Shown here: one piece after another, positions 9,518 to 24,934 of the stretch
Layout: the number at the start of each line of letters is the position of its first letter
How positions within the stretch are numbered: position 1 is the first letter of the stretch
Source: Alistipes sp.
Lineage (GTDB): Bacteria; Bacteroidota; Bacteroidia; Bacteroidales; Rikenellaceae
Length of the DNA stretch: 64,000 nt
Assembly (NCBI RefSeq): GCF_022782405.1
Contig: NZ_JALFNK010000011.1
Reading direction: 5' to 3' (one strand)
Made by a program: the position numbers and the translations under genes
The notes under the pieces: generated by a model
What the model saw: only the letters and a program-made list of their open reading frames with translations
What the model was told of the DNA's origin: nothing
The model's database searches: none

Positions 9518-10477
9518 TCAGTGGTGAAGCGTTCCGGCATTGACCACGGGCTGTGCCGCCTCGTCGGCACAGAGCACAACGAGCAGGTTCGAAACCATCG
9601 CCGCCTTGCGCTCCTCGTCCAGCTCGACGACCTGCTCGTCGGAGAGGCGCTCCAGCGCCATGTGCACCATCGATACGGCTCCCTCGACGATCTTCTCGCG
9701 GGCGGCGATCACGGCGTCGGCCTGCTGGCGGCGCAGCATCACGGCAGCAATCTCCGGGGCATAGGCCAGGTAGTTGATTCGCGCCTCGACGACCTCGATT
9801 CCGGCCATCGCCAGACGCTCGTTCAGTTTCGTCTCGAGCTGCTCGTTGATCTCCTCGCTGTTCGAGCGCAGCGTCAGCGTCTCCTGCTTCGTGCCGTTGT
9901 CATCGTAGGCATAGCAGCCAGCCACCTGGCGCAGCGCCGCGTCGCTCTGCACGTTCACGAAGTTCTGCAGCACGTTCATGCGCGCCGAAGCCGAAACGCC
10001 CTGCCCGGGTGCGGCAGGCGCCGCGTCGATCTCGAAGACCGCCTTGTAGATGTCATCGCGCTTGATGCGCCATACGAGCACCAGACCGATCAGAATCGGG
10101 TTTCCCGTCTTGTCATTGACCTTGATCGGATCGACATTGAGGTTGCGCGCCCGCATCGAAATCGGCTTGGCCGACATGAAGGGATTGACCCACCAGAAGC
10201 CCGTCTCATAGAACGTGCCGCGGTAGTTGCCGAAGAAGACCATCACGCGCGCCTCGTTGGGTTCGAGCAGCATGAAGCCGCACAATCCGACCACCACGAC
10301 GGCAAGTCCCACGGAGCCCGTCATGACCATCCACACCCCGCCCGGCAGCGAAGCATCGGCCCGCATGGCTCCCAATACGATCAAAGCGATGAATCCGGCC
10401 AGCAGAAGCAGTTCACACGCCAGCGCCACGAATCCGTTGGCCTTCCAGCCACCATAGACGAAGTTTCGGTTCTCCAT
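9518..10477 (-). CDS. SPFH/band 7 domain membrane protein
   Basis: Two N-terminal TMs, GFWWVNPF, KVNDKTGNPI, LAYAPEIAAVMLRRQQA, AAMVSNLLVVLC. Confidence 0.92.
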   Translation of the reverse strand: MENRNFVYGGWKANGFVALACELLLLAGFIALIVLGAMRADASLPGGVWMVMTGSVGLAVVVVGLCGFMLLEPNEARVMVFFGNYRGTFYETGFWWVNPFMSAKPISMRARNLNVDPIKVNDKTGNPILIGLVLVWRIKRDDIYKAVFEIDAAPAAPGQGVSASARMNVLQNFVNVQSDAALRQVAGCYAYDDNGTKQETLTLRSNSEEINEQLETKLNERLAMAGIEVVEARINYLAYAPEIAAVMLRRQQADAVIAAREKIVEGAVSMVHMALERLSDEQVVELDEERKAAMVSNLLVVLCADEAAQPVVNAGTLHH

Positions 10478-10485
10478 ATTCGAAA

Positions 10486-10536
10486 TGATATTAATTTGAT
10501 ATCACAAATCTAACATATTTTCCGGGCTGTTCCAAA
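10486..10536 (-). promoter_or_regulatory. SPFH operon promoter (-7 TAGATTTG 10512-10505, -33 TTTG 10536-10533) with adjacent TGATAT repeat operator (10486-10504)
   Basis: Consensus boxes at 20 nt spacing; TGATATtaattTGATATCA immediately downstream of the -7 box. Confidence 0.6.
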
Positions 10537-10619: not shown

Positions 10620-10636
10620 CTGGCACAGTTCATGCA
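10620..10636 (+). promoter_or_regulatory. Candidate sigma54 -24/-12 promoter of gadB
   Basis: CTGGCACAGTTCATGCA vs consensus YTGGCACGRNNNTTGCW; exact GG-N10-GC spacing; no TAnnTTTG upstream of gadB. Confidence 0.55.
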
Positions 10637-10681
10637 ACCCGACAAGGCGGAATATACCACAATTTCTAAACCTGAAAACGT

Positions 10682-12097
10682 ATGGATCTTTTGAAACACC
10701 TGCACGAAGACACGCTGACCGATGTTTTCGGCACGCGGGAGATGCGTTCGCCGGCTCCCACGGAGTTCATTCCCAAAGGAAAGACGGCCCCCGAAGTGGC
10801 TTACCAGATGGTCAAGGACGAGACCTACCCCCAGACACAGCCGCGCCTGAACCTCGCCACGTTCGTTACGACCTACATGGACGACTACGCCACGCGGCTG
10901 ATGAACGAGGCGATCAATGTCAATTACATCGACGAGACGGAGTATCCGCGCGTGGCGGTCATGTGCGGACGCTGCATCAACATCATCGCCAACCTCTGGA
11001 ACACCCCCGAAAAGGCGGAATGGAAAACCGGCGCCGTCGGCATCGGCTCCTCGGAAGCCTGCATGCTGGGCGGCGTGGCCGCCTGGCTGCGCTGGCGCGC
11101 CAAGCGCAAGGCTGCCGGCAAACCATGCGACAAGCCCAACCTGGTGATGAGCGCCGCCTATCAGATCGTCTGGGAGAAATTCTGCCAACTCTGGCAGATC
11201 GAACTGCGCACCGTACCGCTCGACGAGAAACACCCGACACTCAATATCGAAGCCGCCCTCGGCCTCTGCGACGAAAACACGATCTGCATCGTACCGATCG
11301 CCGGCGTTACCTGGACCGGGCTCAACGATGACGTCGAGGCGCTCGACAAGGCGCTCGACGCCTACAACCGCAAGACAGGATACGACATTCCGATCCATGT
11401 AGATGCCGCCTCGGGCGGCTTCATCCTGCCGTTCCTCAATCCGGGCAAAAAGTGGGACTTCCGCCTGCGGTGGGTGCAGTCGATCTCCACGTCGGGCCAC
11501 AAGTTCGGACTGGTCTATCCGGGTCTGGGATGGGTCGTATGGAAAGACAAGAAGTACCTTCCCGAGGAGATGTCCTTCTCGGTCAATTACCTCGGAGCCA
11601 GCATCACGCAGGTGGGTCTGAACTTCTCGCGTCCGGCGGCGCAGATTCTCGGCCAGTACTACAACTTCATCCGCCTGGGATTCGAGGGATACCGGGAGAT
11701 TCAGCAGAACTCGATGGACATAGCCGCCTACTGCCACCGGGCCATCGGCGAGATGACCTGCTTCCGCGTTTTCGCCAAAGAGGTGGTCAATCCGCTCTTC
11801 ATCTGGTCGCTGGACCCCGCCTACGAGAAAAGAGCCAAATGGACGCTTTTCGACCTGCAGACCCGATTGCAGCAAAGCGGGTGGATGGTGCCGGCCTACA
11901 CGATGCCTGCGGCCATCGAGCAGACGATCGTCATGCGCATCGTCGTACGGCAGGGCATGTCGCGCGACATGGCCGACATGCTGCTGCAGGACATCTGCAA
12001 CGCCGTCGGGGAGTTCGAGACGCTCAAATACCCCACGCAGTCGCGTCTGAAGTACGAAAAGAGCGAAAAACAGAAGGGCAAGGTCTATACGCACTGA
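10682..12097 (+). CDS. gadB: Glutamate decarboxylase
   Basis: NLATFVTT, IDETEYP, IHVDAASGGF, STSGHKFGLVYPG (PLP lysine), VNYLG, WMVPAY. Confidence 0.96.
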   Translation: MDLLKHLHEDTLTDVFGTREMRSPAPTEFIPKGKTAPEVAYQMVKDETYPQTQPRLNLATFVTTYMDDYATRLMNEAINVNYIDETEYPRVAVMCGRCINIIANLWNTPEKAEWKTGAVGIGSSEACMLGGVAAWLRWRAKRKAAGKPCDKPNLVMSAAYQIVWEKFCQLWQIELRTVPLDEKHPTLNIEAALGLCDENTICIVPIAGVTWTGLNDDVEALDKALDAYNRKTGYDIPIHVDAASGGFILPFLNPGKKWDFRLRWVQSISTSGHKFGLVYPGLGWVVWKDKKYLPEEMSFSVNYLGASITQVGLNFSRPAAQILGQYYNFIRLGFEGYREIQQNSMDIAAYCHRAIGEMTCFRVFAKEVVNPLFIWSLDPAYEKRAKWTLFDLQTRLQQSGWMVPAYTMPAAIEQTIVMRIVVRQGMSRDMADMLLQDICNAVGEFETLKYPTQSRLKYEKSEKQKGKVYTH

Positions 12098-12172
12098 CGC
12101 CCTGTCCGACCGAAGCGCCGCAAAAAGGGTCGGATACGACACTTCGCGCGGGCTCCGGCGGCCGACATGACG

Positions 12173-12209
12173 AAAAGAGATGCACACTCGATGGGTGCAT
12201 CTCTTTTTT
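12173..12209 (+). terminator. Intrinsic terminator after gadB
   Basis: aaaagagatgcac/gtgcatctctttttt. Confidence 0.8.
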
Positions 12210-12327
12210 CTCGTCCGACCATCCGGACGTTTCCCCGGCCAAAGCAAACAGCATCCGCAACAGGCAGCCCTTGACCGAGCCGAAAAAAAAGCGTAACTTT
12301 ACTGCGTTTTACCGCGCAGTCCCCCGC

Positions 12328-13089
12328 ATGGAACATACATTCGACATCTTCCTGACCGTCATGGCGGTTCTGGCGCTCGTCGTCTTCATCGCCCTGCACT
12401 TCTTCGAGGCCGGATACGGCTACCTGTTCGACCGTCGTTACGGCCCGCCCGTGCCCAACCGCATCGGATGGGTCGTCATGGAATCCCCGGTATTCATTCT
12501 CATGTGCATACTCTGGGCAGCCTCGGACCGCATGCTGCAGGCCGCGCCGCTTACGCTCTTCCTGCTCTTCCAGGCGCACTACCTCCAGCGGGCCTTCATC
12601 TTCCCGCTGCTGATCCGCGGCAACTCGAAGATGCCCCTCGGCATCGTCCTCATGGGCATGCTCTTCAACACGCTCAACGCCCTGATGCAGGGCGGATGGA
12701 TCTTCTATGTCTCCCCGGCGAACTACTACGACGGATGGTTCGCAAAGCCCTACATTTACATAGGCGGCATGCTGTTCCTTGCCGGAATGGTCATCAACCT
12801 CCACTCGGACCACATCATCCGCCACCTCCGCCAACCCGGAGACACACGCCACTACATCCCCCGCGGCGGCATGTTCCGCTACGTCTCGTCGGCTAACTAC
12901 TTCGGAGAGCTGCTCGAATGGGTCGGCTTCGCCGTCGCCTCGTGGTCGTGGGCCGGAGCGGTCTTTGCCTGGTGGACCTTCGCCAACCTGGCGCCCCGCG
13001 CCGCCTCGTTGCGCCGCCGCTATGAACGGGAATTCGGCGAAGAGTTCATCCGCCTCAAACGCAAACGCATCATACCCTTCATCTACTGA
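12328..13089 (+). CDS. 3-oxo-5-alpha-steroid 4-dehydrogenase (steroid 5alpha-reductase family)
   Basis: GWVVMESP, HYLQRAFIFP, NLHSDHIIRHLR, YIPRGGMFRYVSSANYFGELLEW, ANLAPRA. Confidence 0.9.
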   Translation: MEHTFDIFLTVMAVLALVVFIALHFFEAGYGYLFDRRYGPPVPNRIGWVVMESPVFILMCILWAASDRMLQAAPLTLFLLFQAHYLQRAFIFPLLIRGNSKMPLGIVLMGMLFNTLNALMQGGWIFYVSPANYYDGWFAKPYIYIGGMLFLAGMVINLHSDHIIRHLRQPGDTRHYIPRGGMFRYVSSANYFGELLEWVGFAVASWSWAGAVFAWWTFANLAPRAASLRRRYEREFGEEFIRLKRKRIIPFIY

Positions 13090-13107
13090 AACCCCTGAAC
13101 CGCCACC

Positions 13108-14319
13108 ATGTCAAAACTCTTCACTCCCTATAAGCTGGGCCCCGTTACGCTGCGTAACCGCACGATCCGCTCCGCAGCGTTCGAATCCATGGGCAAGGAC
13201 TTCGGCCCTACCGAACAGCTCAAACAGTACCACGTCTCGGTGGCCCGCGGCGGCATCGGCATGACGACGCTCGCCTACGCCGCCGTATCGCGCAGCGGAC
13301 TGTCGTTCAACAAGCAGCTGTGGCTGCGGCCCCAGATCGTCCCGGGGCTGCGCGACATCACCGACGCCATACACCGCGAAGGGGCCGCCGCCGCGATCCA
13401 GATCGGCCACTGCGGCAACATGACCCACTACTCCACGGCCGGACAGATTCCGATCGGCGCTTCGTCGGGCTTCAACCTCTACGCCTACACGCCCGTGCGG
13501 GGCATGCGGCACAACGAGATCGAAGAGGTTGCCCGCGATTTCGGACGTGCCGTACGCACGGCACACGACGCCGGGTTCGATTCGGTGGAGGTGCACGCCG
13601 GGCACGGATACCTCATCTCGCAGTTCCTTTCGCCATACACGAACCGCCGCCGGGACGAATACGGCGGGTCGCTCGAGAACCGCATGCGCTTCATGCGCAT
13701 GTGTCTGGACGAGGCGGTCGGAGCTGCACGGGCCTGCGGCATGGCCATCACCGTCAAGCACAACATGTACGACGGTTTCAAGGGCGGCATCGAGATTCCC
13801 GAGAGCATCGAGATCGCCCGGGTCATCGAATCGTACGGCGTGGACGGCATCGTCCTCTCGGGCGGATTCGTCTCGAAGGCCCCGATGGCCGTCATGCGCG
13901 GACTGATCCCGATCTACACGATGAGCTACTACTCGCCATGGTGGCTCCGCTACTTCATCCGCTGGTGCGGACCCTTCATGATCAAGCAGTTCCCCTTCGA
14001 GGAGTGCTATTTCCTGGAAGATGCCAAAAAGTTCCGCGCCGCACTCAAGGGTCCGCTGATCTATGTCGGAGGTCTGGTGAGCCGCGAAGGCATCGACCGG
14101 GCGCTCGACGCCGGATTCGAACTGGTGCAGATGGCGCGGGCGCTGGTGAACGACCCGGCCTTCGTCGAGAAGCTCCGCACGGGCGACGAAACGACCCGCA
14201 GCGCCTGCGACCACCGCAACTACTGCATCGCCCGCATGTACTCCGTGGACATGAAGTGCTGCAAGGATTGCCCCGACCTGCCGCGGAAAATCGTCGAAGA
14301 GCTTAAGCGCCTGCCCTGA
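13108..14319 (+). CDS. NADH:flavin oxidoreductase (OYE family), candidate steroid 5beta-reductase
   Basis: ARGGIGM, IQIGHCG, EVHAGHGYLISQFLSP, RRDEYGGSLENRMR; Cys-rich C-terminus. Confidence 0.88.
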   Translation: MSKLFTPYKLGPVTLRNRTIRSAAFESMGKDFGPTEQLKQYHVSVARGGIGMTTLAYAAVSRSGLSFNKQLWLRPQIVPGLRDITDAIHREGAAAAIQIGHCGNMTHYSTAGQIPIGASSGFNLYAYTPVRGMRHNEIEEVARDFGRAVRTAHDAGFDSVEVHAGHGYLISQFLSPYTNRRRDEYGGSLENRMRFMRMCLDEAVGAARACGMAITVKHNMYDGFKGGIEIPESIEIARVIESYGVDGIVLSGGFVSKAPMAVMRGLIPIYTMSYYSPWWLRYFIRWCGPFMIKQFPFEECYFLEDAKKFRAALKGPLIYVGGLVSREGIDRALDAGFELVQMARALVNDPAFVEKLRTGDETTRSACDHRNYCIARMYSVDMKCCKDCPDLPRKIVEELKRLP

Positions 14320-15158
14320 TGAGTCTCCGAAAACATACGACATGCCGCAGGCGCGGCGCCGTACCACAAGGCACGGCATGGGCTCTCGTAACGGGTGCAG
14401 GATCGGGCATCGGGCGCTGCTATGCCCTCCGGCTGGCAGCCCTGGGATACAACCTTGTTCTGGCCGGCATCCGGCCCGAACCGCTCGAAACGGTCCGCAG
14501 GGAGATCGAGACGGCCACGCCCGGCACGCGGGTGCTGACATTCGGAATCGACCTGGCACGCATCGGCGCCGCAAAGGAGCTGTACGATTCCACCCGGCGT
14601 GAGGGGATCGACATCGACGTGCTGATCAACAATGCCGGGATCTTCTCCTTTTGCGACCTGCTCCGCACCCCTGCCGAGCGGATCGAGCGGATCATCCTCC
14701 TCCACGACCTGACCAACACGGAAATGTGCCGGCTCTATGCCGCGGACATGATACGGCGCGGCAAGGGCGGTCATATTCTCAACATGTCCTCCTATTCGTT
14801 GTGGATGCCCTTTCCGGGACTGTCGCTTTACAGCGCCTCGAAAGCCTACCTGCGCGCCTTCTCCGTAGCCTTCGCCAAGGAGGTCCGCGAGGCGGGAATC
14901 CGCGTTACCGCCGTATGCCCGGCCGGTGTGGCTACCGATCTCTATGGACTGACGCCCCGCTGGCAACGTATCGGGCTGCGCCTGGGCGTACTTATCTCGG
15001 CCGACACCTGCGCCCGTCGGGGACTGCGGGGGCTGTGGCGCGGGCGCCGCACCATCGTACCCGACTGGTGGAACCGCCTCTGGATCCCGCTGTGCAAGAT
15101 GCTGCCCATGGCGCTCATCGCTCCGCTGCGGCGTTTTACGATGCAATTCCAGAAATAG
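14319..15158 (+). CDS. SDR oxidoreductase, candidate 3beta-hydroxysteroid dehydrogenase
   Basis: TGAGSGIG, NNAG, YSASK; start overlaps the upstream stop. Confidence 0.85.
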   Translation: MSLRKHTTCRRRGAVPQGTAWALVTGAGSGIGRCYALRLAALGYNLVLAGIRPEPLETVRREIETATPGTRVLTFGIDLARIGAAKELYDSTRREGIDIDVLINNAGIFSFCDLLRTPAERIERIILLHDLTNTEMCRLYAADMIRRGKGGHILNMSSYSLWMPFPGLSLYSASKAYLRAFSVAFAKEVREAGIRVTAVCPAGVATDLYGLTPRWQRIGLRLGVLISADTCARRGLRGLWRGRRTIVPDWWNRLWIPLCKMLPMALIAPLRRFTMQFQK

Positions 15159-15244
15159 ATATTTCCCGGTCCGATCTTCCGCAACGGGATTTTTCGTATC
15201 TTTGTGCCGCCCGAAACGGGCCAGAACAAGAAGCAATCCATCCT

Positions 15245-15877
15245 ATGGAATCCATCAAAAACGTAGTATTCGATCTGGGCGGCGTACTGGTTCCGCTCGA
15301 CCTGAATCGCTGCATCGCAGCTTTCCGGCATCTCGGCATGGATGCCGTGGCCGAAATCATCAACCCCTGCTACCCCGCCGAGATGCTCGGACGCCTCGAA
15401 CACGGCGACATCACCTTTCACGAAACCTGCGACGCCATGCGCCAGCTTTCGAACCGGCCCGACATCACCGACGAGCAGATCGAATGGGCCTACGGCGAAT
15501 TTCTGAATCCCATACCGGTCAAACTGCTCCGGCAGATCGAGACCCTGCGCCGACGGGGAATCCGCACCTATGTACTCTCGAACAACAACCCCGCCTCGAT
15601 GAAATTCGTCGAAGAGATGTTCCGGGCCGACGGCCACGAGATGGAATACTATTTCGATGCGGTCTATCTCTCCTACCGGATGCATGAATTGAAACCTTCC
15701 GAGGCGATCTTCCGCAAGATGATCGATGCGAGCGGCATGATCCCCGAAGAGACCTTATTCATCGACGACGGACTGAAAAATATCGAAACGGCCCGCAGCC
15801 TCGGATTCGCCGTTTACATGCCTGTGTCCGGCGAGGATTTCGGGCACCTGCTCGAATCGGTGGCCGATCGGGAATAG
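15245..15877 (+). CDS. HAD-family phosphatase (YihX-like)
   Basis: FDLGGV motif I, LSNNN, KPSEAIF, FIDD; own TATCTTTG at 15198-15205. Confidence 0.88.
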   Translation: MESIKNVVFDLGGVLVPLDLNRCIAAFRHLGMDAVAEIINPCYPAEMLGRLEHGDITFHETCDAMRQLSNRPDITDEQIEWAYGEFLNPIPVKLLRQIETLRRRGIRTYVLSNNNPASMKFVEEMFRADGHEMEYYFDAVYLSYRMHELKPSEAIFRKMIDASGMIPEETLFIDDGLKNIETARSLGFAVYMPVSGEDFGHLLESVADRE

Positions 15878-15893
15878 CCAAGAAACGTATCAA

Positions 15894-15935
15894 GGGAAAA
15901 AAGCCTTTCAGTTCAAACTGAAAGGCTTTTTTCCC
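15894..15935. terminator. Bidirectional terminator between HAD gene and tRNA-Pro
   Basis: gggaaaaaagcctttcag/ctgaaaggcttttttccc. Confidence 0.85.
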
Positions 15936-15936
15936 T

Positions 15937-16014
15937 TGGTCGGGGTAACAGGATTCGAACCTGTGACCCCCTGCTCCCAAAGCAGGTGCGCTAACCGGAC
16001 TGCGCTACACCCCG
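15937..16014 (-). tRNA. tRNA-Pro (anticodon UGG), CCA encoded
   Basis: Reverse complement CGGGGTGTAGCGCAGTCCGGTTAGCGCACCTGCTTTGGGAGCAGGGGGTCACAGGTTCGAATCCTGTTACCCCGACCA folds as a cloverleaf. Confidence 0.96.
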
Positions 16015-16063
16015 AATCGTACTTTGCTTCGGACCGGAAACTCCGAAGGCCGGAAACTCGAAT

Positions 16064-16095
16064 AAAAAAAGCAGACCACCGAATGGGCGGTCTGC
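16064..16095 (-). terminator. Terminator-like hairpin between the two tRNA-Pro genes
   Basis: gcagacc/ggtctgc stem followed by T7 on the minus strand. Confidence 0.65.
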
Positions 16096-16102
16096 CGATC
16101 TG

Positions 16103-16177
16103 TCGGGGAGACTGGATTCGAACCAGCGACCTCCAACTCCCGAAGCTGGCGCGCTAACCGGACTGCGCTACACCCCG
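16103..16177 (-). tRNA. tRNA-Pro (anticodon CGG), CCA not encoded
   Basis: Reverse complement CGGGGTGTAGCGCAGTCCGGTTAGCGCGCCAGCTTCGGGAGTTGGAGGTCGCTGGTTCGAATCCAGTCTCCCCGA; promoter TATCTTTG at 16214-16207. Confidence 0.96.
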
Positions 16178-16279
16178 AACAGGGCCCTTATCGTTTTAAG
16201 AGCGCACAAAGATAAGTCTAAAATCCGAAAGGACAAAATAAATTCACAAAAAAATACCGGTTGCAAGAAGATGCCGACC

Positions 16280-17353
16280 TCATAACCGGTGATAATGGCA
16301 GCCGAGCAACATGCCCCGATCGTCGCGCAGGTGCATGCCGCCACCCTGGCAATAACGGAACATACGACAGTCTCCGCACATTCCCCGGCGCATCCATTCC
16401 CGGTCGCGGAAGGGTTGGAAACGGGTCTGCCACACCTCCCAGAAACGGTCGCGGTAGATATTTCCCTGATTGAAGTTGGCACGGATCGACGTGCAGCCCG
16501 AAATAGCCCCGTCCACCCGGACGGAGGCCACCGAGATTCCGGCGGCACATTGATAAAAATGATCGCGGACCTCGGCCTCGTAACCACCGAGAAAACCTTC
16601 GCAGGCATAGCTGGCATCGATACGCCCTTCACGGCGCGTACGTCGGATGAAATCGAGCAACGTCCGGAATTCGGCATCCGAAAGACGGAGTTTCGGCTCC
16701 TCCTTGGCACGCCCGGCCGGAAAAATGGAGAAAAGCCGCCAATGACGGACCCCTTCGGCGATGAGCATATCGCGAAAAGCCTCCAACTGCGGGACAAGGG
16801 AGGCCGTAACGCAGGTTACGATATCGAAGGAGAGCGACGGCTCGCGCACGACCATCCGCACGGCTTCGAGCGCCTGTTCATAGCTGCGCGGATTGCCTCG
16901 CAACCAGTTGTGCTCGGAAGCGAATCCGTCGAGGCTTACGGACAAACTTCGCAAGCCGGCCGCAAGCAGGCTGCGCAGCCGGTCCGGAGTCAGCGCCAGT
17001 CCGTTGGTAACCATCCCCCACGGATAACCGCGGCGGGAAATTTCCATTCCGGCCCGTTCGAGATCCGGGCGTACCAATGCCTCGCCGCCCGAGATGACGA
17101 CGAGCACCTGTGCCGGATCGACATGGGGCGTTACCTCCTCATCGAGAACGCGCAGGAAATCTTCCAAAGGCATGTCCGCCACCCCGGGATCCGTACGGCA
17201 GTCGCTGCCGCAGTGACGGCACGAGAGATTGCAACGCAGCGTACACTCCCAAAAGAGCGTATCGAGACGATGTTCGCGCACCCGCTCCCGATACAGGTCT
17301 GAAAAAAGATCGAGGGCCCATTTCTTGCGGAGCCCCAAACGCCGGCCGCGCAT
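16280..17353 (-). CDS. Radical SAM/SPASM enzyme, resembling the Bacteroidota rSAM/lipoprotein system (TIGR04133-like)
   Basis: LFWECTLRCNLSCRHC (CxxxCxxC), ISGGEAL, GMVTNG, SVSLDG; SPASM-type CAAG...GC...CGDCRMFRYC; 3 nt downstream of a small lipoprotein gene. Confidence 0.9.
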   Translation of the reverse strand: MRGRRLGLRKKWALDLFSDLYRERVREHRLDTLFWECTLRCNLSCRHCGSDCRTDPGVADMPLEDFLRVLDEEVTPHVDPAQVLVVISGGEALVRPDLERAGMEISRRGYPWGMVTNGLALTPDRLRSLLAAGLRSLSVSLDGFASEHNWLRGNPRSYEQALEAVRMVVREPSLSFDIVTCVTASLVPQLEAFRDMLIAEGVRHWRLFSIFPAGRAKEEPKLRLSDAEFRTLLDFIRRTRREGRIDASYACEGFLGGYEAEVRDHFYQCAAGISVASVRVDGAISGCTSIRANFNQGNIYRDRFWEVWQTRFQPFRDREWMRRGMCGDCRMFRYCQGGGMHLRDDRGMLLGCHYHRL

Positions 17354-17356
17354 GGA

Positions 17357-17641
17357 TCAGCGCTCCGCTTGCGGCGTTTCACCGCCGGTTTCCGAAGATT
17401 CCGGGACCGTTGGACTCTGCGAGCGTTCGACCTGCTCCATGGGACGCTTGTCCAACGGCGTCTGAGCTGGCGGACGCACACCGTACATGACAATGATCTG
17501 CGGACGTTCGCTGCCCTCCACGGCCGTAGAATCCGCGCGTTCCGCCCTTTCGGAGTTGCCTTTCGCGGTGTTTTTTACCGTGGAACACGCTGTCGAGAAC
17601 CCCAACAGTGCCAAAATCGCCCATTTGAACCGTTTGCTCAT
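17357..17641 (-). CDS. Small lipoprotein, putative rSAM substrate (MYG motif)
   Basis: Basic N-terminus, hydrophobic core, lipobox Cys19 (LLGFSTAC); polar low-complexity body with IIVMYGVRP; own TATCTTTG at 17672-17665. Confidence 0.75.
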   Translation of the reverse strand: MSKRFKWAILALLGFSTACSTVKNTAKGNSERAERADSTAVEGSERPQIIVMYGVRPPAQTPLDKRPMEQVERSQSPTVPESSETGGETPQAER

Positions 17642-17772
17642 GAATCGCTGCTATTAGTAGTCTACAAAGATAGCATTTTTCATGCTAATCCAAAAAAAAG
17701 ATCAAATCATTTTGAAAGTCAATGTTTTTTATATTACTTTGTAGAACCTAATAACATTTTAATTCATTTTTT

Positions 17773-17973
17773 ATGACAGGCAAAGTAAAATGGTTCGATA
17801 GCAAGAAAGGCTACGGATTCATTACGGCGGAGAACGGCAAGGAAATTTTCGTGCACTTCTCGGGAATTGCGAAGGAGGGTTTCAAGTCGCTCAACGAAGG
17901 TCAGACGGTCGAGTTCGAAATCGGCACGGGTGCCAAGGGAGAACAGGCCATTAACGTAACTGTAGTTGAGTAA
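17773..17973 (+). CDS. Cold-shock domain protein
   Basis: [15 protein letters not shown] (RNP1) and IFVHFS (RNP2). Confidence 0.95.
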
Positions 17974-17997
17974 ACTATAATTACCGGTTATTTTATT

Positions 17998-18032
17998 AAG
18001 AGGCGTTCCCGCGAGGGAGGCCTCTTTTTTTT
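17998..18032 (+). terminator. Terminator after csp gene
   Basis: aagaggc...gcctcttttttttt hairpin with T-run. Confidence 0.7.
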
Positions 18033-18115
18033 GCCCGTTTGAAAAATATGTCGTATTTTTGGGCGGTTTTAGTCCGAAAAACAGGTTCAAAAAACACAAT
18101 AAACCTATCAAGATC

Positions 18116-19351
18116 ATGAAAGAAGCTATCGCAATCCTGACCGGCGGCGGACCGGCCCCCGGCATGAACACCGTAGTGGGCAGCGTCGCCAAGACGTTCC
18201 TCCGCAAAGGTTACCGCGTAATCGGCCTGCACGAAGGCTATACGGGACTGTTCAACCCCTCGCCCCGCACCGTGGACATCGACTATCCGATGGCCGACGG
18301 CATCTTCAACCAGGGTGGATCGTTCCTGCAGATGAGCCGCTTCAAGCCGACCGATGCCGATTTCGAAAACAACTTCAACCTCAAGTTCTTCACCGACAAC
18401 AACGTGAAACTCCTCGTTACGGTCGGCGGAGACGATACCGCCTCGACGGCCAACCGTATCGCCAAATTCCTCGAGGCCAAGAAGTACCCCATCGCCAACA
18501 TCCACGTTCCGAAGACCATCGACAACGACCTGCCCCTTCCGAAGGGCACGCCCACGTTCGGTTACGAGTCGGCCAAGGACAAGGGTGCCGTCATCGCCCG
18601 CGCCGTCTATGTGGACGCCCGTACGAGCGGCAACTGGTTCGTGCTGGCTGCCATGGGCCGTTCGGCCGGACACCTCGCCTTCGGTATCGGTGAGGCCTGC
18701 CACTATCCGATGATCGTCATCCCCGAGATGTTCAACAAGACGGAGATCACCGTCGAGAAGATCGTGAACCTCGTGATCTCGTCGATCATCAAGCGCAAGA
18801 TCATGGGTATGGACTACGGTGCCGCCGTCATCTCGGAGGGCGTCTTCCACGCCCTTTCGGACGAGGAGATCCGCAAGAGCGGCGTACACTTCACCTACGA
18901 CGAGCACGGACATCCCGAGCTGGGCAAGGTTTCGAAGGCACACATCTTCAACGAGATGATCGAGAAGAAGCTCAAGGAGCTGGGTATCAAGGTCAAGAGC
19001 CGCCCCGTAGAGCTCGGCTACGAAATCCGCTGCCAGACCCCGATTGCTTACGACCTGACCTACTGCTCGGAGTTGGGTATCGGCGTGCACAAGCTCTTTG
19101 CCGAGGGCAAGACGGGCTGCATGGTCTATGTGGATTCCGAGGGCAACGTATCACCGCTCTACCTGAAGGACCTGCAGGACCCCACGACGGGCAAGATTCC
19201 GCCCCGTCTGGTCGATATCAACTCGGACAAGTTCACCTCGGTAGTCGAGAACATCCTCAACGCTATCACGCCGGCCGATTACGAAGCCGCCAAGAAGTAT
19301 GTGGCCAACCCCGAGGAGTACGACTTCCACAAGATTCTCAACTGGAAATAA
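18116..19351 (+). CDS. 6-phosphofructokinase family, PPi-dependent signature
   Basis: GGGPAPGMN, GGDDT, PKTIDND, MGR; promoter TATTTTTG at 18054-18061. Confidence 0.9.
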   Translation: MKEAIAILTGGGPAPGMNTVVGSVAKTFLRKGYRVIGLHEGYTGLFNPSPRTVDIDYPMADGIFNQGGSFLQMSRFKPTDADFENNFNLKFFTDNNVKLLVTVGGDDTASTANRIAKFLEAKKYPIANIHVPKTIDNDLPLPKGTPTFGYESAKDKGAVIARAVYVDARTSGNWFVLAAMGRSAGHLAFGIGEACHYPMIVIPEMFNKTEITVEKIVNLVISSIIKRKIMGMDYGAAVISEGVFHALSDEEIRKSGVHFTYDEHGHPELGKVSKAHIFNEMIEKKLKELGIKVKSRPVELGYEIRCQTPIAYDLTYCSELGIGVHKLFAEGKTGCMVYVDSEGNVSPLYLKDLQDPTTGKIPPRLVDINSDKFTSVVENILNAITPADYEAAKKYVANPEEYDFHKILNWK

Positions 19352-19372
19352 TCGTCCATAAGAATCCGACAA

Positions 19373-19410
19373 CGAAAAAACGGAGCATCGCATGATGCTC
19401 CGTTTTTCGT
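19373..19410. terminator. Bidirectional terminator
   Basis: cgaaaaaacggagcatc/gatgctccgtttttcg. Confidence 0.85.
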
Positions 19411-19428
19411 ATTGGCTGAGGTCGGATA

Positions 19429-19938
19429 TCAGAAGAGTTCGGGATCCGCCGGCCGGATGGCCAGCGCTGCTGAAGGATGAAGGTTCCACACCTCGCAATT
19501 TCGCCCGAAAGCCCGACGCAGGGTGTATTGTGTTCCGCCGGGAGAACCGTCATACCAGGCCACGACGAGTGAAGCATTATCGACCAGATAACGGTTCCGC
19601 ACGGCATAGCACCCGCGATGAAAAACCTCGGAAAGAACCACGGTCTCGTCGGATGCAGCCTCCACGGCCCTGAAGCGCGCCTGCTCCAGCTCCGGGAAAC
19701 GGGTCTCCTGCCCGCGGAAAGGTATGACGGCGACAAGCCGTACGCATGGGTGCTCCGCACGGAACGCAAGAACCGCTTCGGCCGCTGCAAGGTCGAAGCC
19801 CATGGCCATGCCCGACAGAAAAGTACGGTAACCGCGGGCGAAAGCACGCTCCACGGCCGCCGCAAGCGACGCTCCCGCCGTACCGCCGTAAGTACGGTGG
19901 CCCGTAAAGGCCACCGTTGTCCGGATATCCGCATTCAT
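19429..19938 (-). CDS. SLOG family protein (YspA/DUF1273-like)
   Basis: VAFTGHR, FLSGMAMGFDL, IPFRGQ, RNRYLVD, GSPGGT. Confidence 0.85.
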   Translation of the reverse strand: MNADIRTTVAFTGHRTYGGTAGASLAAAVERAFARGYRTFLSGMAMGFDLAAAEAVLAFRAEHPCVRLVAVIPFRGQETRFPELEQARFRAVEAASDETVVLSEVFHRGCYAVRNRYLVDNASLVVAWYDGSPGGTQYTLRRAFGRNCEVWNLHPSAALAIRPADPELF

Positions 19939-19955
19939 ATCTCAAAGGTAGCCTT

Positions 19956-19972
19956 TTGGCCCGGACTTTGCA
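19956..19972 (+). promoter_or_regulatory. Candidate sigma54 -24/-12 promoter of ytxH operon
   Basis: TTGGCCCGGACTTTGCA, one mismatch to YTGGCACGRNNNTTGCW; 31 nt before the ATG. Confidence 0.6.
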
Positions 19973-20003
19973 ACACTTCCCGCGGCATAAAAACATCATT
20001 ACC

Positions 20004-20213
20004 ATGAAAAACACAGGCATCGTCATCGCATCGCTCGTGGGCGGCATGATTCTCGGATCGGCCCTCACGATGTTGCTCACGCCCCAGTCGGGCCCGGAAC
20101 TGCGTCGGAAAATCAAGGACCTTGTCGGCGAAGAACTGGACCGTGTACAGGAGAAAATCGGAGAGGTAGAGACCCGCATCGACGAAATCCGCTGTCAATG
20201 CGAGGAGCAGTAA
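20004..20213 (+). CDS. YtxH-domain protein
   Basis: N-terminal GG-GxxxxxLLTPQSGPELRRKI motif followed by coiled coil. Confidence 0.85.
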   Translation: MKNTGIVIASLVGGMILGSALTMLLTPQSGPELRRKIKDLVGEELDRVQEKIGEVETRIDEIRCQCEEQ

Positions 20214-20226
20214 ACCGCAGCAGACC

Positions 20227-20565
20227 ATGAACGACCGCTCCGCCTCCGGCCATCTTGTCGCCGCACTGCTTTTCTTCGCGATCGCAGCGCTGGCAGCCAT
20301 GCTGATGGTGCTTACGGCACTCGTCGTATGGTTGTCCTCATTGACCGGATCGCTCATTCTTTCGGCTGCGGTCCTCGGCCTGCTTTTCGCGCTCATCGCC
20401 CTGGCAATCTACCGCTTCTCGATCTGTGAAGAGCTGCAAAGGATTCGGACACAGATCGAAACGGTCTACGAGGTGGCTTATGCGGCCCGAAGCGGTTACG
20501 AATGGCTTGTCGCGAAAGTTGTCCGACTGCTCCGTCCCCGAGAGGATCCGCCGCATGAAGCGTAA
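20227..20565 (+). CDS. Two-TM membrane protein (holin-like/YqjE-type)
   Basis: Two hydrophobic helices and a soluble tail; 13 nt after ytxH. Confidence 0.55.
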   Translation: MNDRSASGHLVAALLFFAIAALAAMLMVLTALVVWLSSLTGSLILSAAVLGLLFALIALAIYRFSICEELQRIRTQIETVYEVAYAARSGYEWLVAKVVRLLRPREDPPHEA

Positions 20566-20567
20566 AC

Positions 20568-20603
20568 GAAAGCGCCCGGAGTCTTTGACCTCCGGACGCT
20601 TTC
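20568..20603. terminator. Terminator between convergent genes
   Basis: gaaagcg-ccggag/ctccgga-cgctttc imperfect stem. Confidence 0.6.
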
Positions 20604-20636
20604 ATAACTGTCTGACGGAAAAAGTCCTCCGTTCCA

Positions 20637-21377
20637 TCAATAATCGAGCGCCACACGCACCTCCGTATAACTTTCGCCGATACGCAGCCGCAAGGTATAA
20701 TAGGTGGACCCGGAACCGTACGACGGCCACTCGAGCAATGTAAAGACCAGTTTGCGCCCCTGCTTCTCGCACACGAGCTCACCCTTGCCGTCGAGTTCGG
20801 CCTCAAAGTTGTCGGAAGGCATTGTTACGGCAACCTTATCCATAAGGGCCTTCGACGAATAATCCAACTTGTAGGGTGCGGAGCCCCACTCGGGCAATCC
20901 GTGGTTCCGGGGAGTCTCGATAACGAACTTCACAACGGCGCCCAGATTTCCGCGCTCCGTATCTTCTATATTGTCGGCAACATAGAACTTGAGGTAGTTT
21001 GCGCCCAGGGCGGGATCAAGCGGCAGTGCCACATTTTGAGACGGGAACATCCGGGCAGCGGCACCCCGCACGGCCACATAACCATATCCTTTCGTTACCG
21101 CTACTTCGGTAGCGGGATTCTTCAATGCGGATATCTGCACATCCCCCAGCCCCGAACGTTTGCCCAGCATGAAGATCTGGCAATCCGAAGGACTGATGAA
21201 ATTTCCGGCATCGTTGATATAAATGTCCGAATCATCAAGCATCGTTTTTCCGTTCTGCTCGTTGTACATGTTGAGCATGGCGGTTCCTTCGGGATCGCCC
21301 GGCGTGTCGTCCTTCGAGCAGGACCCGGCTGCGCAAAACAAAACCGCAGCAAGAAGCGTCAGAAACATTTTTTTCAT
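20637..21377 (-). CDS. Surface lipoprotein, DUF5036-like
   Basis: Lipobox AGSC followed by SKDD; PEGTAMLNMYNEQNGKT recalled as DUF5036-like; promoter TATCTTTG at 21424-21417. Confidence 0.65.
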   Translation of the reverse strand: MKKMFLTLLAAVLFCAAGSCSKDDTPGDPEGTAMLNMYNEQNGKTMLDDSDIYINDAGNFISPSDCQIFMLGKRSGLGDVQISALKNPATEVAVTKGYGYVAVRGAAARMFPSQNVALPLDPALGANYLKFYVADNIEDTERGNLGAVVKFVIETPRNHGLPEWGSAPYKLDYSSKALMDKVAVTMPSDNFEAELDGKGELVCEKQGRKLVFTLLEWPSYGSGSTYYTLRLRIGESYTEVRVALDY

Positions 21378-21456
21378 CTTTTCACGATATTTTTGAGTGG
21401 TGGTGTAGCCGGAGTACAAAGATAAGCCAAAAATTATTCCGGCAATCGATCCGGCG

Positions 21457-21491
21457 AAAAAAAGCAGGCTCCCCATGATGGGAAGCCTGCT
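21457..21491 (-). terminator. Terminator after rubrerythrin gene
   Basis: agcaggct-ccc/ggg-agcctgct with T7. Confidence 0.75.
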
Positions 21492-21512
21492 CCGAATCTA
21501 TTGAAGGAGGGA

Positions 21513-22067
21513 TTACTTGCCGAAGTAACGCTTGTAAAGGCCTTCGAATCCCTTGCCGTGGCGCGCTTCGTCCTTGGCCATCTCGTGTACGGTATCGTGC
21601 ACGGCATCGAGGTTCTCCTCCTTGGCCATGCGGGCCAGACGCATCTTGTCCTCGCAGGCACCGCACTCGGCGTTCATGCGCTTGTAGAGGTTGGTCTTCG
21701 TATCCCATACCACCTCACCTATCAGCTCGGCGAACTTCGAGGCGTGCTCGGCCTCCTCCCAGGCATAACGCTTGTAAGCCTCGGCAATCTCGGGATAGCC
21801 CTCGCGGTCAGCCTGACGGCTCATGGCCAGATACATGCCCACCTCGGTGCACTCGCCCATAAAGTGGTTCTGCAGACCCTCCCAGAGCTCCTTGCTGGCG
21901 CCTTTGCCATCGCCGATCTTATGAACGGTAACGAAATCAAGATCGCCTTCCTGCTCTACGACTTCTACGAACTTATCCTTGCCAACCTTGCACATCGGGC
22001 ACTGCTCGGGTGCCTCGGGTCCTTCGTGAATGTACCCGCATACGGTACAACGCCATTTCTTTGCCAT
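21513..22067 (-). CDS. Reverse rubrerythrin / NADH peroxidase
   Basis: N-terminal rubredoxin CTVCGY...CPMC; diiron EAEHA and EARHG; promoter TACCTTTG at 22127-22120. Confidence 0.92.
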
Positions 22068-22246
22068 AGTTTTACTATTTAAAGTGTGTATGTTTGTATT
22101 TCGTGGTTTTTGACCGGTACAAAGGTAACGATTCCCCGCAAAGATCCCGCATAAAAGCGATCGTCTTTTTTTATGGCCCGATAAGCAAAATCTATACCCG
22201 ACCCCGGGAACATACCGAACAGTTATAACGCCGCCGCATCGGCTCA

Positions 22247-23173
22247 TTATCCCCGGCGGTCGATCACCTCCTCGATCTGCGGAACCGAGGTCGAATCCTT
22301 CACCAGCACACGCTTGTCGCAGTCGAAAAGGTAAAGCGACGGGATGGCATGGAAATCGTAGGTTCCCTCATCCCGGATGACGCATCCCCGGTCGTAGGCA
22401 TTGATCCACTTCGGCGGAATCTGATCCGCATAGTCGCGCCACGCAGCCAGGTCCTCATCGGGATAGAGCGCCAGCACACGCAGTCGGCCCCGTTCGATCA
22501 TCTCCGAGAGCATGGGTGAAGAAGCAATCTCCTCACGGATCTCGCGGCACATCGTACAGCCGGGATTATTGACAAAAAGCAGGACATACTCGGCATCCAA
22601 CCCGTAAAGGGTCCCCGAAGCGCCCGAGGCGAGCGTATAGCGGATGTCGTTGGCCCGTTCCCCGACGCGGTTCTGAAGCGCCATGTGCAGGTCGTATTCG
22701 GGCGCAATCCGCTCGTATTCGTCATACCAGGGCGCCGCCAGCAGGGCCCGCAGCACGGGAATGTAGAATTCATCGTTCCGGAAGGGCGAATTGGGATCGT
22801 GGAGCACTCCGTCGGCCAACATCGCGAAATAGTCCATCATCCGGCGCGACGAGCAGGCGCGGCGCATGAGCGTGTCGATCGGTGCGCCGTCCGTCGGGCG
22901 GTCCGAAAGCAGCACGATATAACGGGCAAAGGCGTCGAACATCTGCGCCGTGTCGATCCGCGCAAGAAACAGCGTATCGGCAAAGTCGAAACAGTCCCAA
23001 TAGTGGGCCTTCAGGTATTCGCGGCGTCCTTCTTCCGTCAGGTGCGCCGGAGGCACGGGAACACGGAACGTCGCCGGAACGGTGGCGGGTGCCGCCTGTT
23101 CAGTCTTCGTCGGGCGTGTGCCGCACGAAGTCAGGAAGAGAAGCAGAGAGAGAATCGTTGCAATACGGCGCAT
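22247..23173 (-). CDS. DUF5106-domain lipoprotein with C-terminal thioredoxin-like domain
   Basis: Lipobox LTSC; HYWDCFDF; NNPGCTMC; HAIPSLYL. Confidence 0.75.
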
Positions 23174-23263
23174 GGCAAACGGATTGTGGATCGTCGATGG
23201 AACAAAGATAGGAATTTCTGCCGGATTTCCACCTGCGCCGTCCGGTTTTCGCACCGCCGGATT

Positions 23264-23280
23264 TTTGCACGGTAGTTGCA
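23264..23280 (+). promoter_or_regulatory. Degenerate sigma54-like motif upstream of gadC
   Basis: TTTGCACGGTAGTTGCA matches consensus except the first G of the -24 GG. Confidence 0.3.
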
Positions 23281-23312
23281 CTCGCTGCAGCGTTCAAACA
23301 AAAACAACGCAT

Positions 23313-24899
23313 ATGGATGTAAAAAAAACTACCTCAAGCAAGGGGTTCAAATTGAGCGTCATGACGCTGGCCATCATGAACGTTACGGCCGTCGTCAGCC
23401 TGCGCGGACTCCCGGCCGAAGCGGTCTACGGCCTCTCGTCGGCCTTCTACTACCTCTTTGCGGCCATCGTGTTCCTCATTCCTACGGCGCTGGTCGCCGC
23501 CGAACTTGCCGCGATGTTCTCCGACAAACAGGGAGGTGTCTTCCGCTGGGTCGGCGAGGCCTTCGGCGCCCGCACGGGATTTCTGGCCATCTGGCTGCAG
23601 TGGATCGAATCGACGATCTGGTATCCGACGGTGCTGACCTTCGGTGTCGTGTCGATCGCCTTTATCGGGACGAACGAGACGCACGACATGTCGCTGGCCT
23701 CGAACAAGCTCTTCACTCTGCTGATCGTCATGGCGATCTACTGGGTGGCGACCTTCATCTCGCTCAAGGGAATGAGTTGGGTCGGCAAGATCAGCAAATG
23801 GGGCGGCATGGTCGGCACGATCATCCCCGCAGGCCTGCTCATCATCCTGGGCATCGTCTATCTGGCTACGGGCGGCACGAACCACATGGACCTCTCGCAG
23901 GGATTCTTTCCCGACCTTACGAAGCTCGACAATCTCGTGCTGGCCAGCAGCATCTTCCTCTTCTATGCCGGCATGGAGATGATGGGCATCCACGTCATGG
24001 ACGTGAAGAACCCCACACGCAACTACCCGCGGGCCATCATCATCGGCTCGCTGGCCACGGTCTGCATCTTCGTGCTGGGCACCTTCGCCCTGGGGCTCAT
24101 CATTCCCGCCAAGGAGATCAGCCTCACGCAGTCGCTGCTTATCGGCTTCGACGACTATTTCCGCTACCTGCACCTATCGTGGGCCTCGCCCGTGATCGCC
24201 ATCGCCCTGATGTTCGGCGTGCTGGCCGGCGTGCTGACATGGGTAGCCGGTCCTTCGAAGGGTATCTTCACCGTCGGCAAGGCGGGATACCTGCCCCCCT
24301 TCTTCCAGAAGACGAACCGCAACGGCGTACAGAGCAACATCCTCTACATCCAGGGGGCAATCGTAACGCTGCTGGCGCTGCTGTTCGTCGTGATGCCCTC
24401 CGTACAGTCGTTCTACCAGATTCTGTCGCAGCTCACCGTGCTGCTCTACCTGATCATGTACATGCTGATGTTCGCCGCGGCGATCGTACTGCGCTACCGC
24501 ATGAAATCGACCCCGCGGCCTTTCCGCCTCGGCAAACGGAACGGCATGATGTGGCTGCTCGGAGGATTGGGATTCCTCGGATCGCTGCTGGCCTTCGTGT
24601 TGAGCTTCATCCCGCCCGGACAGATCGCCACGGGCAGCAATACCGTATGGTATTCCGTGCTTGTCATCGGGTGCCTGCTCGTCGTCGGCGTACCGTTCGT
24701 CATCTACGCTCTGCGCAAGCCCTCATGGCGCGACCCGCAGGCCGCAGCAGAATTCGCTCCCTTCCATTGGGAACAGCCGACTGCCATCGCGGAATCGCCG
24801 ACCGGCTTCCATCCGGGTTCTTCGACACGACATCTGGAATCACAATCAAAACAGCAACAGTCCCGGACGAAGCGTAATTCGGACAGGATGCCAAAATGA
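23313..24899 (+). CDS. gadC: Glutamate/GABA antiporter (APC family)
   Basis: TAVVSLRGLP, AAELAAM, GGVFRWVGEAFG, FYAGME, NYPRAI; about 12 TM. Confidence 0.85.
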   Translation: MDVKKTTSSKGFKLSVMTLAIMNVTAVVSLRGLPAEAVYGLSSAFYYLFAAIVFLIPTALVAAELAAMFSDKQGGVFRWVGEAFGARTGFLAIWLQWIESTIWYPTVLTFGVVSIAFIGTNETHDMSLASNKLFTLLIVMAIYWVATFISLKGMSWVGKISKWGGMVGTIIPAGLLIILGIVYLATGGTNHMDLSQGFFPDLTKLDNLVLASSIFLFYAGMEMMGIHVMDVKNPTRNYPRAIIIGSLATVCIFVLGTFALGLIIPAKEISLTQSLLIGFDDYFRYLHLSWASPVIAIALMFGVLAGVLTWVAGPSKGIFTVGKAGYLPPFFQKTNRNGVQSNILYIQGAIVTLLALLFVVMPSVQSFYQILSQLTVLLYLIMYMLMFAAAIVLRYRMKSTPRPFRLGKRNGMMWLLGGLGFLGSLLAFVLSFIPPGQIATGSNTVWYSVLVIGCLLVVGVPFVIYALRKPSWRDPQAAAEFAPFHWEQPTAIAESPTGFHPGSSTRHLESQSKQQQSRTKRNSDRMPK

Positions 24900-24900
24900 G

Positions 24901-24934
24901 AAGGAGCCGCTCCAAATCGATGGAGCGGCTCCTT
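24901..24934. terminator. Bidirectional terminator
   Basis: aaggagccgctcca/tggagcggctccttt. Confidence 0.85.

Follow-up and report, generated by a model that had tools for sequence, protein, structure and literature searches.

Which sigma factor switches on the acid-resistance genes of a gut bacterium that has neither RpoS nor SigB? The question is raised by a 64,000-nucleotide stretch, referred to here as the window, of a 2.26-Mb Alistipes genome (family Rikenellaceae, 59% G+C). The window corresponds to C7:110282-174281, where C and a number denote a contig. Three sequences in it resemble the -24/-12 promoter of sigma-54 (RpoN), and they precede gadB and gadC of the glutamate decarboxylase (GAD) system and a gene for a YtxH-like membrane protein. 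From these sites, a first-pass annotation had proposed that RpoN may act as a general-stress and acid-resistance sigma factor in this lineage. Judged from sequence, the three boxes are best explained as sigma-54 promoters, a reading to which we assign a probability of roughly 0.78. The boxes are listed as 17-mers, together with the 16-mers that begin one nucleotide later and share the same ends:

10620-10636, plus strand: sigma-54-type -24/-12 box before gadB, CTGGCACAGTTCATGCA (16-mer TGGCACAGTTCATGCA, 10621-10636), predicted start 10647-10648
10682-12097, plus strand: gadB, glutamate decarboxylase, 471 aa (TIGR01788, 556.7 bits, cut-off 380; PF00282)
19956-19972, plus strand: sigma-54-type box before ytxH, TTGGCCCGGACTTTGCA (16-mer TGGCCCGGACTTTGCA, 19957-19972), predicted start 19983-19984
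20004-20213, plus strand: ytxH-like gene, 69 aa, one N-terminal membrane helix (PF12732 YtxH, 40 bits, cut-off 37.5)
23264-23280, plus strand: sigma-54-type box before gadC, TTTGCACGGTAGTTGCA (16-mer TTGCACGGTAGTTGCA, 23265-23280), predicted start 23291-23292
23313-24899, plus strand: gadC, glutamine/glutamate-GABA (gamma-aminobutyric acid) antiporter, 528 aa (TIGR03813, 792 bits, cut-off 650)

The boxes stand exactly where they had first been placed, ending 45 nt (gadB), 31 nt (ytxH) and 32 nt (gadC) before the ATG codons at 10682, 20004 and 23313, and the family matches bear out the three gene names. The gadB box (TGGCAC-N5-ATGCA) and the ytxH box (TGGCCC-N5-TTGCA) both have the form GG-N10-GC, and in the gadC box (TTGCAC-N5-TTGCA) a T replaces the first G of the GG pair. 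If they work as ordinary sigma-54 promoters, the sigma-54 form of RNA polymerase would sit on TGGCAY-N5-(T/A/G)TG in a closed complex, which an ATP-hydrolysing enhancer-binding protein would have to remodel, with no transcription otherwise. Transcripts would then begin about 12-13 nt past the -12 element, near 10647, 19983 and 23291. The sequence itself shows the boxes, their conservation and orientation bias, and the presence of rpoN and activator genes; sigma-54 dependence, these start sites, the inducing signals and the choice of activator are inferred.

The strongest evidence for the boxes, as far as sequence comparison can carry it, is their conservation. In the sampled genera of the family, gadB orthologues with 68-83% protein identity carry the box 26-125 nt before the ATG. 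The pattern GGCA-Y-A-N-TTT-N-TG is kept, within unalignable flanks, in 79 of 80 named records assigned to Alistipes, Rikenellaceae, Candidatus Cryptobacteroides or unclassified Bacteroidales. Carriers include A. putredinis DSM 17216, A. timonensis and A. montrealensis, and the gadB of the window itself shares 97% identity with its counterpart in Candidatus Alistipes faecigallinarum (Rikenellaceae). Across 48 distinct variants of the gadB box, G2, G3, A5, T9, T13 and G14 are invariant.

The other two sites behave similarly. The gadC 16-mer TTGCACGGTAGTTGCA recurs unchanged between diverged flanks in three other genomes of the genus, and AGGCACGGTAGTTGCT takes its place in one more. The boxes of more distant genera begin with TTGCAC or TGGCAC, so that gadC orthologues as a whole alternate among TTGCAC, AGGCAC and TGGCAC. 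Where gadC lies directly behind gadB in one operon it carries no separate box, which a promoter role would predict. The ytxH box is kept as TGGCGCGGACTTTGCA in three genomes of the genus although the proteins are only 32-68% identical, and TGG-N9-TTTG(C/T) is kept before about 20 ytxH homologues of other genera. Strand preference was measured with a canonical sigma-54 matrix, written from the consensus and not trained on these data, by taking the highest score within 200 nt upstream of each ATG and excluding the own genus. For gadB the sense strand outscored the antisense strand in 22 of 24 regions (p=5e-6), for gadC in 18 of 24 (p=0.005) and for ytxH in 20 of 23 (p=4e-4).

Conserved letters may also mark a protein-binding site, and the 16-mer could be the operator of an acid-resistance regulator that merely resembles a sigma-54 promoter, with transcription starting from a weak promoter nearby. 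The spacer TTT and A7 of the gadB boxes are indeed conserved as strongly as the -24/-12 letters, the invariant letters make up a partial dyad (CAnA-N3-TnTG), and the canonical C of the -12 element is not conserved. However, nothing mirrors the invariant GG on the other side of the dyad, and no covariation links positions 6/12, 3/15 or 2/16. A promoter would look like this, a dimer operator would not, and on these grounds a palindromic operator in the gadB box was rejected. The same architecture, with other spacers, recurs before gadC, ytxH and a dozen chaperone genes. The orientation of the box is strictly towards the gene, and downstream of it there is neither a TAnnTTTG nor a conserved -10 element from which a nearby start could be served. 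An operator in place of a promoter is accordingly unlikely.

Several features do weigh against sigma-54 promoters, and they concern mainly the letters of the boxes. Most gadB orthologues have GTGA or ATGA in place of TTGC at the -12 element and so lack the C of the canonical GC, and sigma-54 promoters do not usually conserve a spacer TTT, which in the gadB boxes could mean an overlapping protein site. In the gadC box, TG stands where GG is near-invariant, and in the ytxH box a C takes the fifth position, normally that of a conserved A. There is a small probability that the spacer TTT, the variable -12 C, the TG of gadC and the fifth-position C of ytxH reflect an overlapping regulator site. Two further points concern activation. 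The intergenic region before ytxH measures 65 nt, leaving no space for an enhancer outside coding sequence. No activator site is shared upstream, either among 79 gadB regions or among 15 gadB, gadC and ytxH regions of the genus: k-mer searches of these sequences yielded only A-runs and the TAnnTTTG boxes of neighboring genes. Activation from solution or from inside coding sequence is possible, as pure inference.

At the scale of the genome, the three boxes exceed chance. With the canonical matrix, the gadB box (score 16.1) ranks fifth and the ytxH box (14.6) eleventh among all 16-mers of the 2.26-Mb sequence. With a second matrix, built from orthologous sites of other genomes and ignoring the spacer, intergenic boxes scoring at least 14 number 17 in promoter-capable orientation and 3 in non-capable orientation, an enrichment of about six-fold, and coding sequence holds 0.5 such boxes per 100 kb. 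The expectation that the motif would be commoner upstream of genes than in the background is thus borne out by orientation. Genes were called with a hexamer model and interval scheduling, which makes gene starts approximate and some distances from box to ATG (e.g. those of DnaK and Hsp20) over-estimates. A lineage matrix permitting T at the first G catches TTTG boxes of the housekeeping kind that lie 13-20 nt from the ATG, and such hits were discounted. Intragenic promoters were considered for an excess of TGGCAY-N5-TTG inside genes and set aside, since the hits are mostly antisense in one frame and are read as a codon-usage artefact. A sigma-70 consensus and terminator scan is uninformative for this phylum.

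The only perfect TGGCAC-N5-TTGCT site of the genome (C3:22898-22913, minus strand) stands 33 nt before the gene of a 193-aa lipoprotein without a Pfam match. For the variant found before gadC, all five genomic copies of TTGCAC-N5-TTGC[AT] are intergenic. TTGCAC-type boxes at C9:96820-96835, at C6:6885-6900 and, as TTGCACACGATTTGAA, 47 nt before the gene C7:47974-52707 precede genes for an M16 peptidase, an Rce1-like CAAX protease and a 1577-aa membrane protein.

The first-pass annotation had suggested a genome-wide search for further boxes, and chaperone, protease and other stress genes come up. The same box, in the right orientation and 20-150 nt from the gene start, precedes many of them:

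groES: TGGCACAGCTCTTGTT
htpG: TGGCACACCGTTTGTT
dnaK: TGGTACAACCTTTGTT
grpE: TGGTATGCAATTTGCG
clpB: TGGCAGGCGTTTTGCG
hsp20: TGGCACGGGATTTGAC

Further boxed genes are clpP, which is probably a member of the regulon, a Transgly_assoc (GlsB/YeaQ/YmgE-type) gene, tpx and an Ion_trans_2 K+ channel gene, along with envelope and uncharacterized genes for a DUF2007 protein, a porin-like protein and several lipoproteins. Pfam matches in the downstream genes comprise HSP90, Cpn10, HSP70, GrpE, HSP20, ClpB, CLP_protease, Transgly_assoc, Ion_trans_2 and Redoxin. Under sigma-54 control, gadB, gadC and the ytxH-like membrane-protein operon would therefore belong to one regulon with groES-EL, dnaK, grpE, htpG, clpB, hsp20 and probably clpP, and the GlsB/YeaQ-type stress protein and the K+ channel would be included. 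Glutaminase is not among the members, as the genome has no PF04960 gene.

The K+ channel gene (C7:70641-71327, minus strand) lies about 39 kb upstream of the window and has TGGCACCGATTTTGAA 23 nt before its start. The gad cluster of Bacteroides holds a K+ channel gene as well, so the boxed channel may be a scattered member of the acid-resistance set.

Might the boxes instead be degenerate housekeeping (sigma-A) promoters, in which TTTG or TTG serves as the -7 element and the TGG is conserved for some other reason? The ytxH boxes do contain TTTG, and two start sites mapped in Bacteroides thetaiotaomicron point the same way. The start of BT_0157 lies just 8 nt after the TTTG of a look-alike box, a sign that some look-alikes are not sigma-54 promoters, which counts against our reading. 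In rich medium, BT_1243 (GrpE) starts from a housekeeping box, TACCTTTG, with a TGGCAT nearby that has no -12 element (PMC7366714), and B. thetaiotaomicron heat-shock genes may thus have dual promoters. In the Alistipes genome, however, the gadB and gadC boxes are without any TTTG, and a -7 element would leave the invariant GGCA at fixed spacing unexplained. In the 150 nt upstream of gadB, ytxH and gadC the sense strand carries no exact TAnnTTTG, which agrees with the first-pass annotation but discriminates weakly, because just 48% of 1028 upstream regions genome-wide (by the gene calls used here) carry one. In B. thetaiotaomicron, too, the mapped starts of BT_0565, a heat shock protein gene with GG at -26/-25, and of BT_1000, with GG at -25/-24 and a TTGA -12 element, indicate that such boxes fire with sigma-54 geometry in the same order (PMC7366714). 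Housekeeping promoters at the three sites are thus highly improbable.

The sigma factors of the genome fit the preferred reading, that of sigma-54 promoters. The inventory comprises one rpoN, one primary sigma factor with region 3 and six sigma factors of extracytoplasmic function (ECF) size, with none of the RpoS, SigB or RpoH type, so the premise that RpoS and SigB are missing holds for this genome. The rpoN gene, on which the original proposal depended, is present at C16:155274-156692 (PF04552, 180 bits), and its RpoN box, ARRTVAKYR, is intact in translation. As rpoN occurs in 80 of 81 genomes of the family, comparing its distribution with that of the box is uninformative. Sigma-54 is the only alternative sigma factor that is not of ECF size and plausibly does the work of RpoH and of RpoS or SigB. 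Together with the boxes before chaperone and protease genes, the absence of those three types supports, at the level of sequence, the suggested general-stress role of RpoN.

Five full sigma-54 activators (PF00158) accompany rpoN:

C14:45695-46921: response regulator, receiver-AAA-HTH (helix-turn-helix) architecture
C11:59921-61249: response regulator, receiver-AAA-HTH architecture
C7:25721-27085: response regulator, receiver-AAA-HTH architecture
C14:16481-17581: receiver and AAA+ domains, no HTH_8 in the gene call; could act from solution
C4:74551-75762: no receiver, AAA+ from residue 13, C-terminal HTH_8; adjoins lptE

The last of these is followed by the LptE gene (PF04390, C4:74038-74547) and is a candidate activator of the stress regulon. 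PspF likewise begins directly with its AAA+ domain.

In Bacteroides thetaiotaomicron, the same gene has a different kind of promoter. There, gadB (BT2570), glsA and a permease gene belong to the regulon of the ECF sigma factor SigH-1 (BT1197), which has a -30/-10 motif named 'PM2' (PMC7366714, PMC12596196), and the BT_2570 start was seen in stationary phase only (PMC7366714). BT_2569, which adjoins gadB, is itself an ECF sigma factor gene. An ECF route to gadB therefore exists in the order, and this is a further point against sigma-54 in Alistipes, where one of the six ECF-type sigma factors could transcribe the genes with the box holding a -35-like element. The ytxH homologues often have TGGAAC or TGGAAT, which is like the GGAAC -35 element of many ECF promoters. 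Against this, the conserved blocks in Alistipes lie 5 nt apart, whereas those of sigma-70-family promoters lie 16-17 nt apart and those of the 'PM2' type about 20 nt apart, and nothing is conserved where a -10 element would fall. The 50 nt before the mapped BT_2570 start contain no -24/-12 box and bear no likeness to the Alistipes region. It is very unlikely that an ECF sigma factor reads the three boxes.

The box is also missing before gadB in six other Bacteroidales families (L199-L204 of an order-wide sample), where the protein is 71-75% identical and the best score is below 6. Several of these families share an A-rich AAAATC...AAAC pattern, different from the box and similar to the one in B. 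thetaiotaomicron. Sister families thus differ in the class of promoter before gadB: in B. thetaiotaomicron and, by our reading, in Alistipes a stress-linked alternative sigma factor controls the same gene, through promoters of different classes. The earlier proposal is narrowed accordingly. Conservation of the box upstream of gadB, and with it a probable acid-resistance role of RpoN, stands for Rikenellaceae and a few close relatives; it does not extend to B. thetaiotaomicron or the six families, and hence not to Bacteroidota at large.

Control of chaperones and proteases by sigma-54 in Bacteroidota has already been published. In Flavobacterium psychrophilum, 5'-end RNA sequencing gave a -24/-12 motif, SM4, whose targets include groES-EL, lon, dnaK, grpE-dnaJ, htpG, skp and clpB, and mutagenesis in one operon confirmed its conserved letters (Guerin et al. 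2021, PMC9723704). F. psychrophilum and Alistipes, members of the same phylum, have in common the -24/-12 architecture, the core targets groES-EL, dnaK, grpE, htpG and clpB, and a sigma-54 activator gene adjoining lptE. Unlike Alistipes, which has them boxed, the SM4 targets selected for Table 2A of that paper comprise no gad, YtxH or GlsB-like genes. The two also differ in that the F. psychrophilum starts are mapped, whereas those of Alistipes, an anaerobic gut member of the Bacteroidales, are predicted. A 2025 survey with position-specific scoring matrices likewise found sigma-54 promoters enriched in Bacteroidota before the genes of GroEL/ES, GrpE, DnaJ/K, IbpA, HtpG, ClpB and Lon, with a chaperone enrichment that spans Bacteroidota and Planctomycetota (PLoS One, PMC12316311). 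In contrast to the Alistipes boxes, its text has no glutamate decarboxylase, gad, acid resistance or YtxH.

Other stress regulons resemble the predicted one in content. The types of target overlap with those of RpoS in E. coli and SigB in Bacillus, namely the GAD system, YtxH and GlsB/YeaQ-type proteins. Those regulons use a different sigma family and mechanism, sigma-54 being the one that requires an ATPase activator. In E. coli, the effect of RpoN on GAD is indirect and negative, and the gad promoters are of the sigma-S/sigma-70 type, unlike in Alistipes, where the box would lie directly on the gadB and gadC promoters. For enterohaemorrhagic E. coli, two papers link sigma-54 to GAD acid resistance in a manner that needs NtrC and rpoS (PMC3459932, PMC4287178). 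Literature searches on sigma-54 in Alistipes and on RpoN, Bacteroides and glutamate decarboxylase found no description of a gad link and none of YtxH members. What looks undescribed is the membership of gadB, gadC, the ytxH operon, the GlsB-like gene and the K+ channel gene in Alistipes and its relatives, with sigma-54-type promoters in place of the ECF-type control known from Bacteroides. The sequence evidence supports an ordinary sigma-54 mechanism and the extension of a known heat-shock regulon to acid resistance in Rikenellaceae and a few close relatives.

The surroundings of the three boxes in the window contain a few additional features:

9518-10477, minus strand: SPFH/Band_7 gene, divergent from gadB, with its own housekeeping -7 box TAGATTTG (10500-10520, minus strand) in the intergenic region of the gadB box
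15940-16014 and 16103-16177, minus strand: two tRNA genes
19429-19938, minus strand: divergent gene whose TACCTTTG -7 box is abutted by the ytxH box
20227-20565, plus strand: 112-aa membrane protein open reading frame (ORF), beginning 13 nt past ytxH
24901-24934: 14-pair hairpin immediately 3' of gadC, with convergent genes on either side

The 112-aa ORF, which has no Pfam or NCBIfam match, probably shares a transcript with ytxH, and the hairpin is likely a two-way terminator. The leaders of the three sites have no Rfam family nearby, the only Rfam matches in the window being the two tRNAs, near which ORF-based gene calls are spurious.

A bolder version of the proposal may be considered, though it is tentative and, taken as a whole, less likely than not. 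In Rikenellaceae and relatives, sigma-54 might be the sole global stress sigma factor, standing in for RpoH, RpoS and SigB at once. The GAD system might have been captured by promoter replacement, a thought that arises because sister families drive gadB from an ECF-type promoter. The regulon might further be fired without promoter-specific enhancers, by the lptE-linked PspF-like activator or the one lacking an HTH, and such enhancer-free firing would explain the lack of an upstream activator site.

In Alistipes, a common genus of the gut, stress physiology and the control of transcription have hardly been studied. GAD is also a source of GABA, a metabolite that acts on the host. Should gadB and gadC be driven directly by sigma-54, both acid resistance and GABA output would hang on an ATPase activator and share a switch with the heat-shock response in these bacteria. 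The contrast with Bacteroides would then mean that, between sister families, a core stress system has been rewired from one sigma factor to another, with no direction implied. The finding bears on what replaces RpoS and RpoH in Bacteroidota, for which this genome offers three predicted starts, one sigma gene and five activators.

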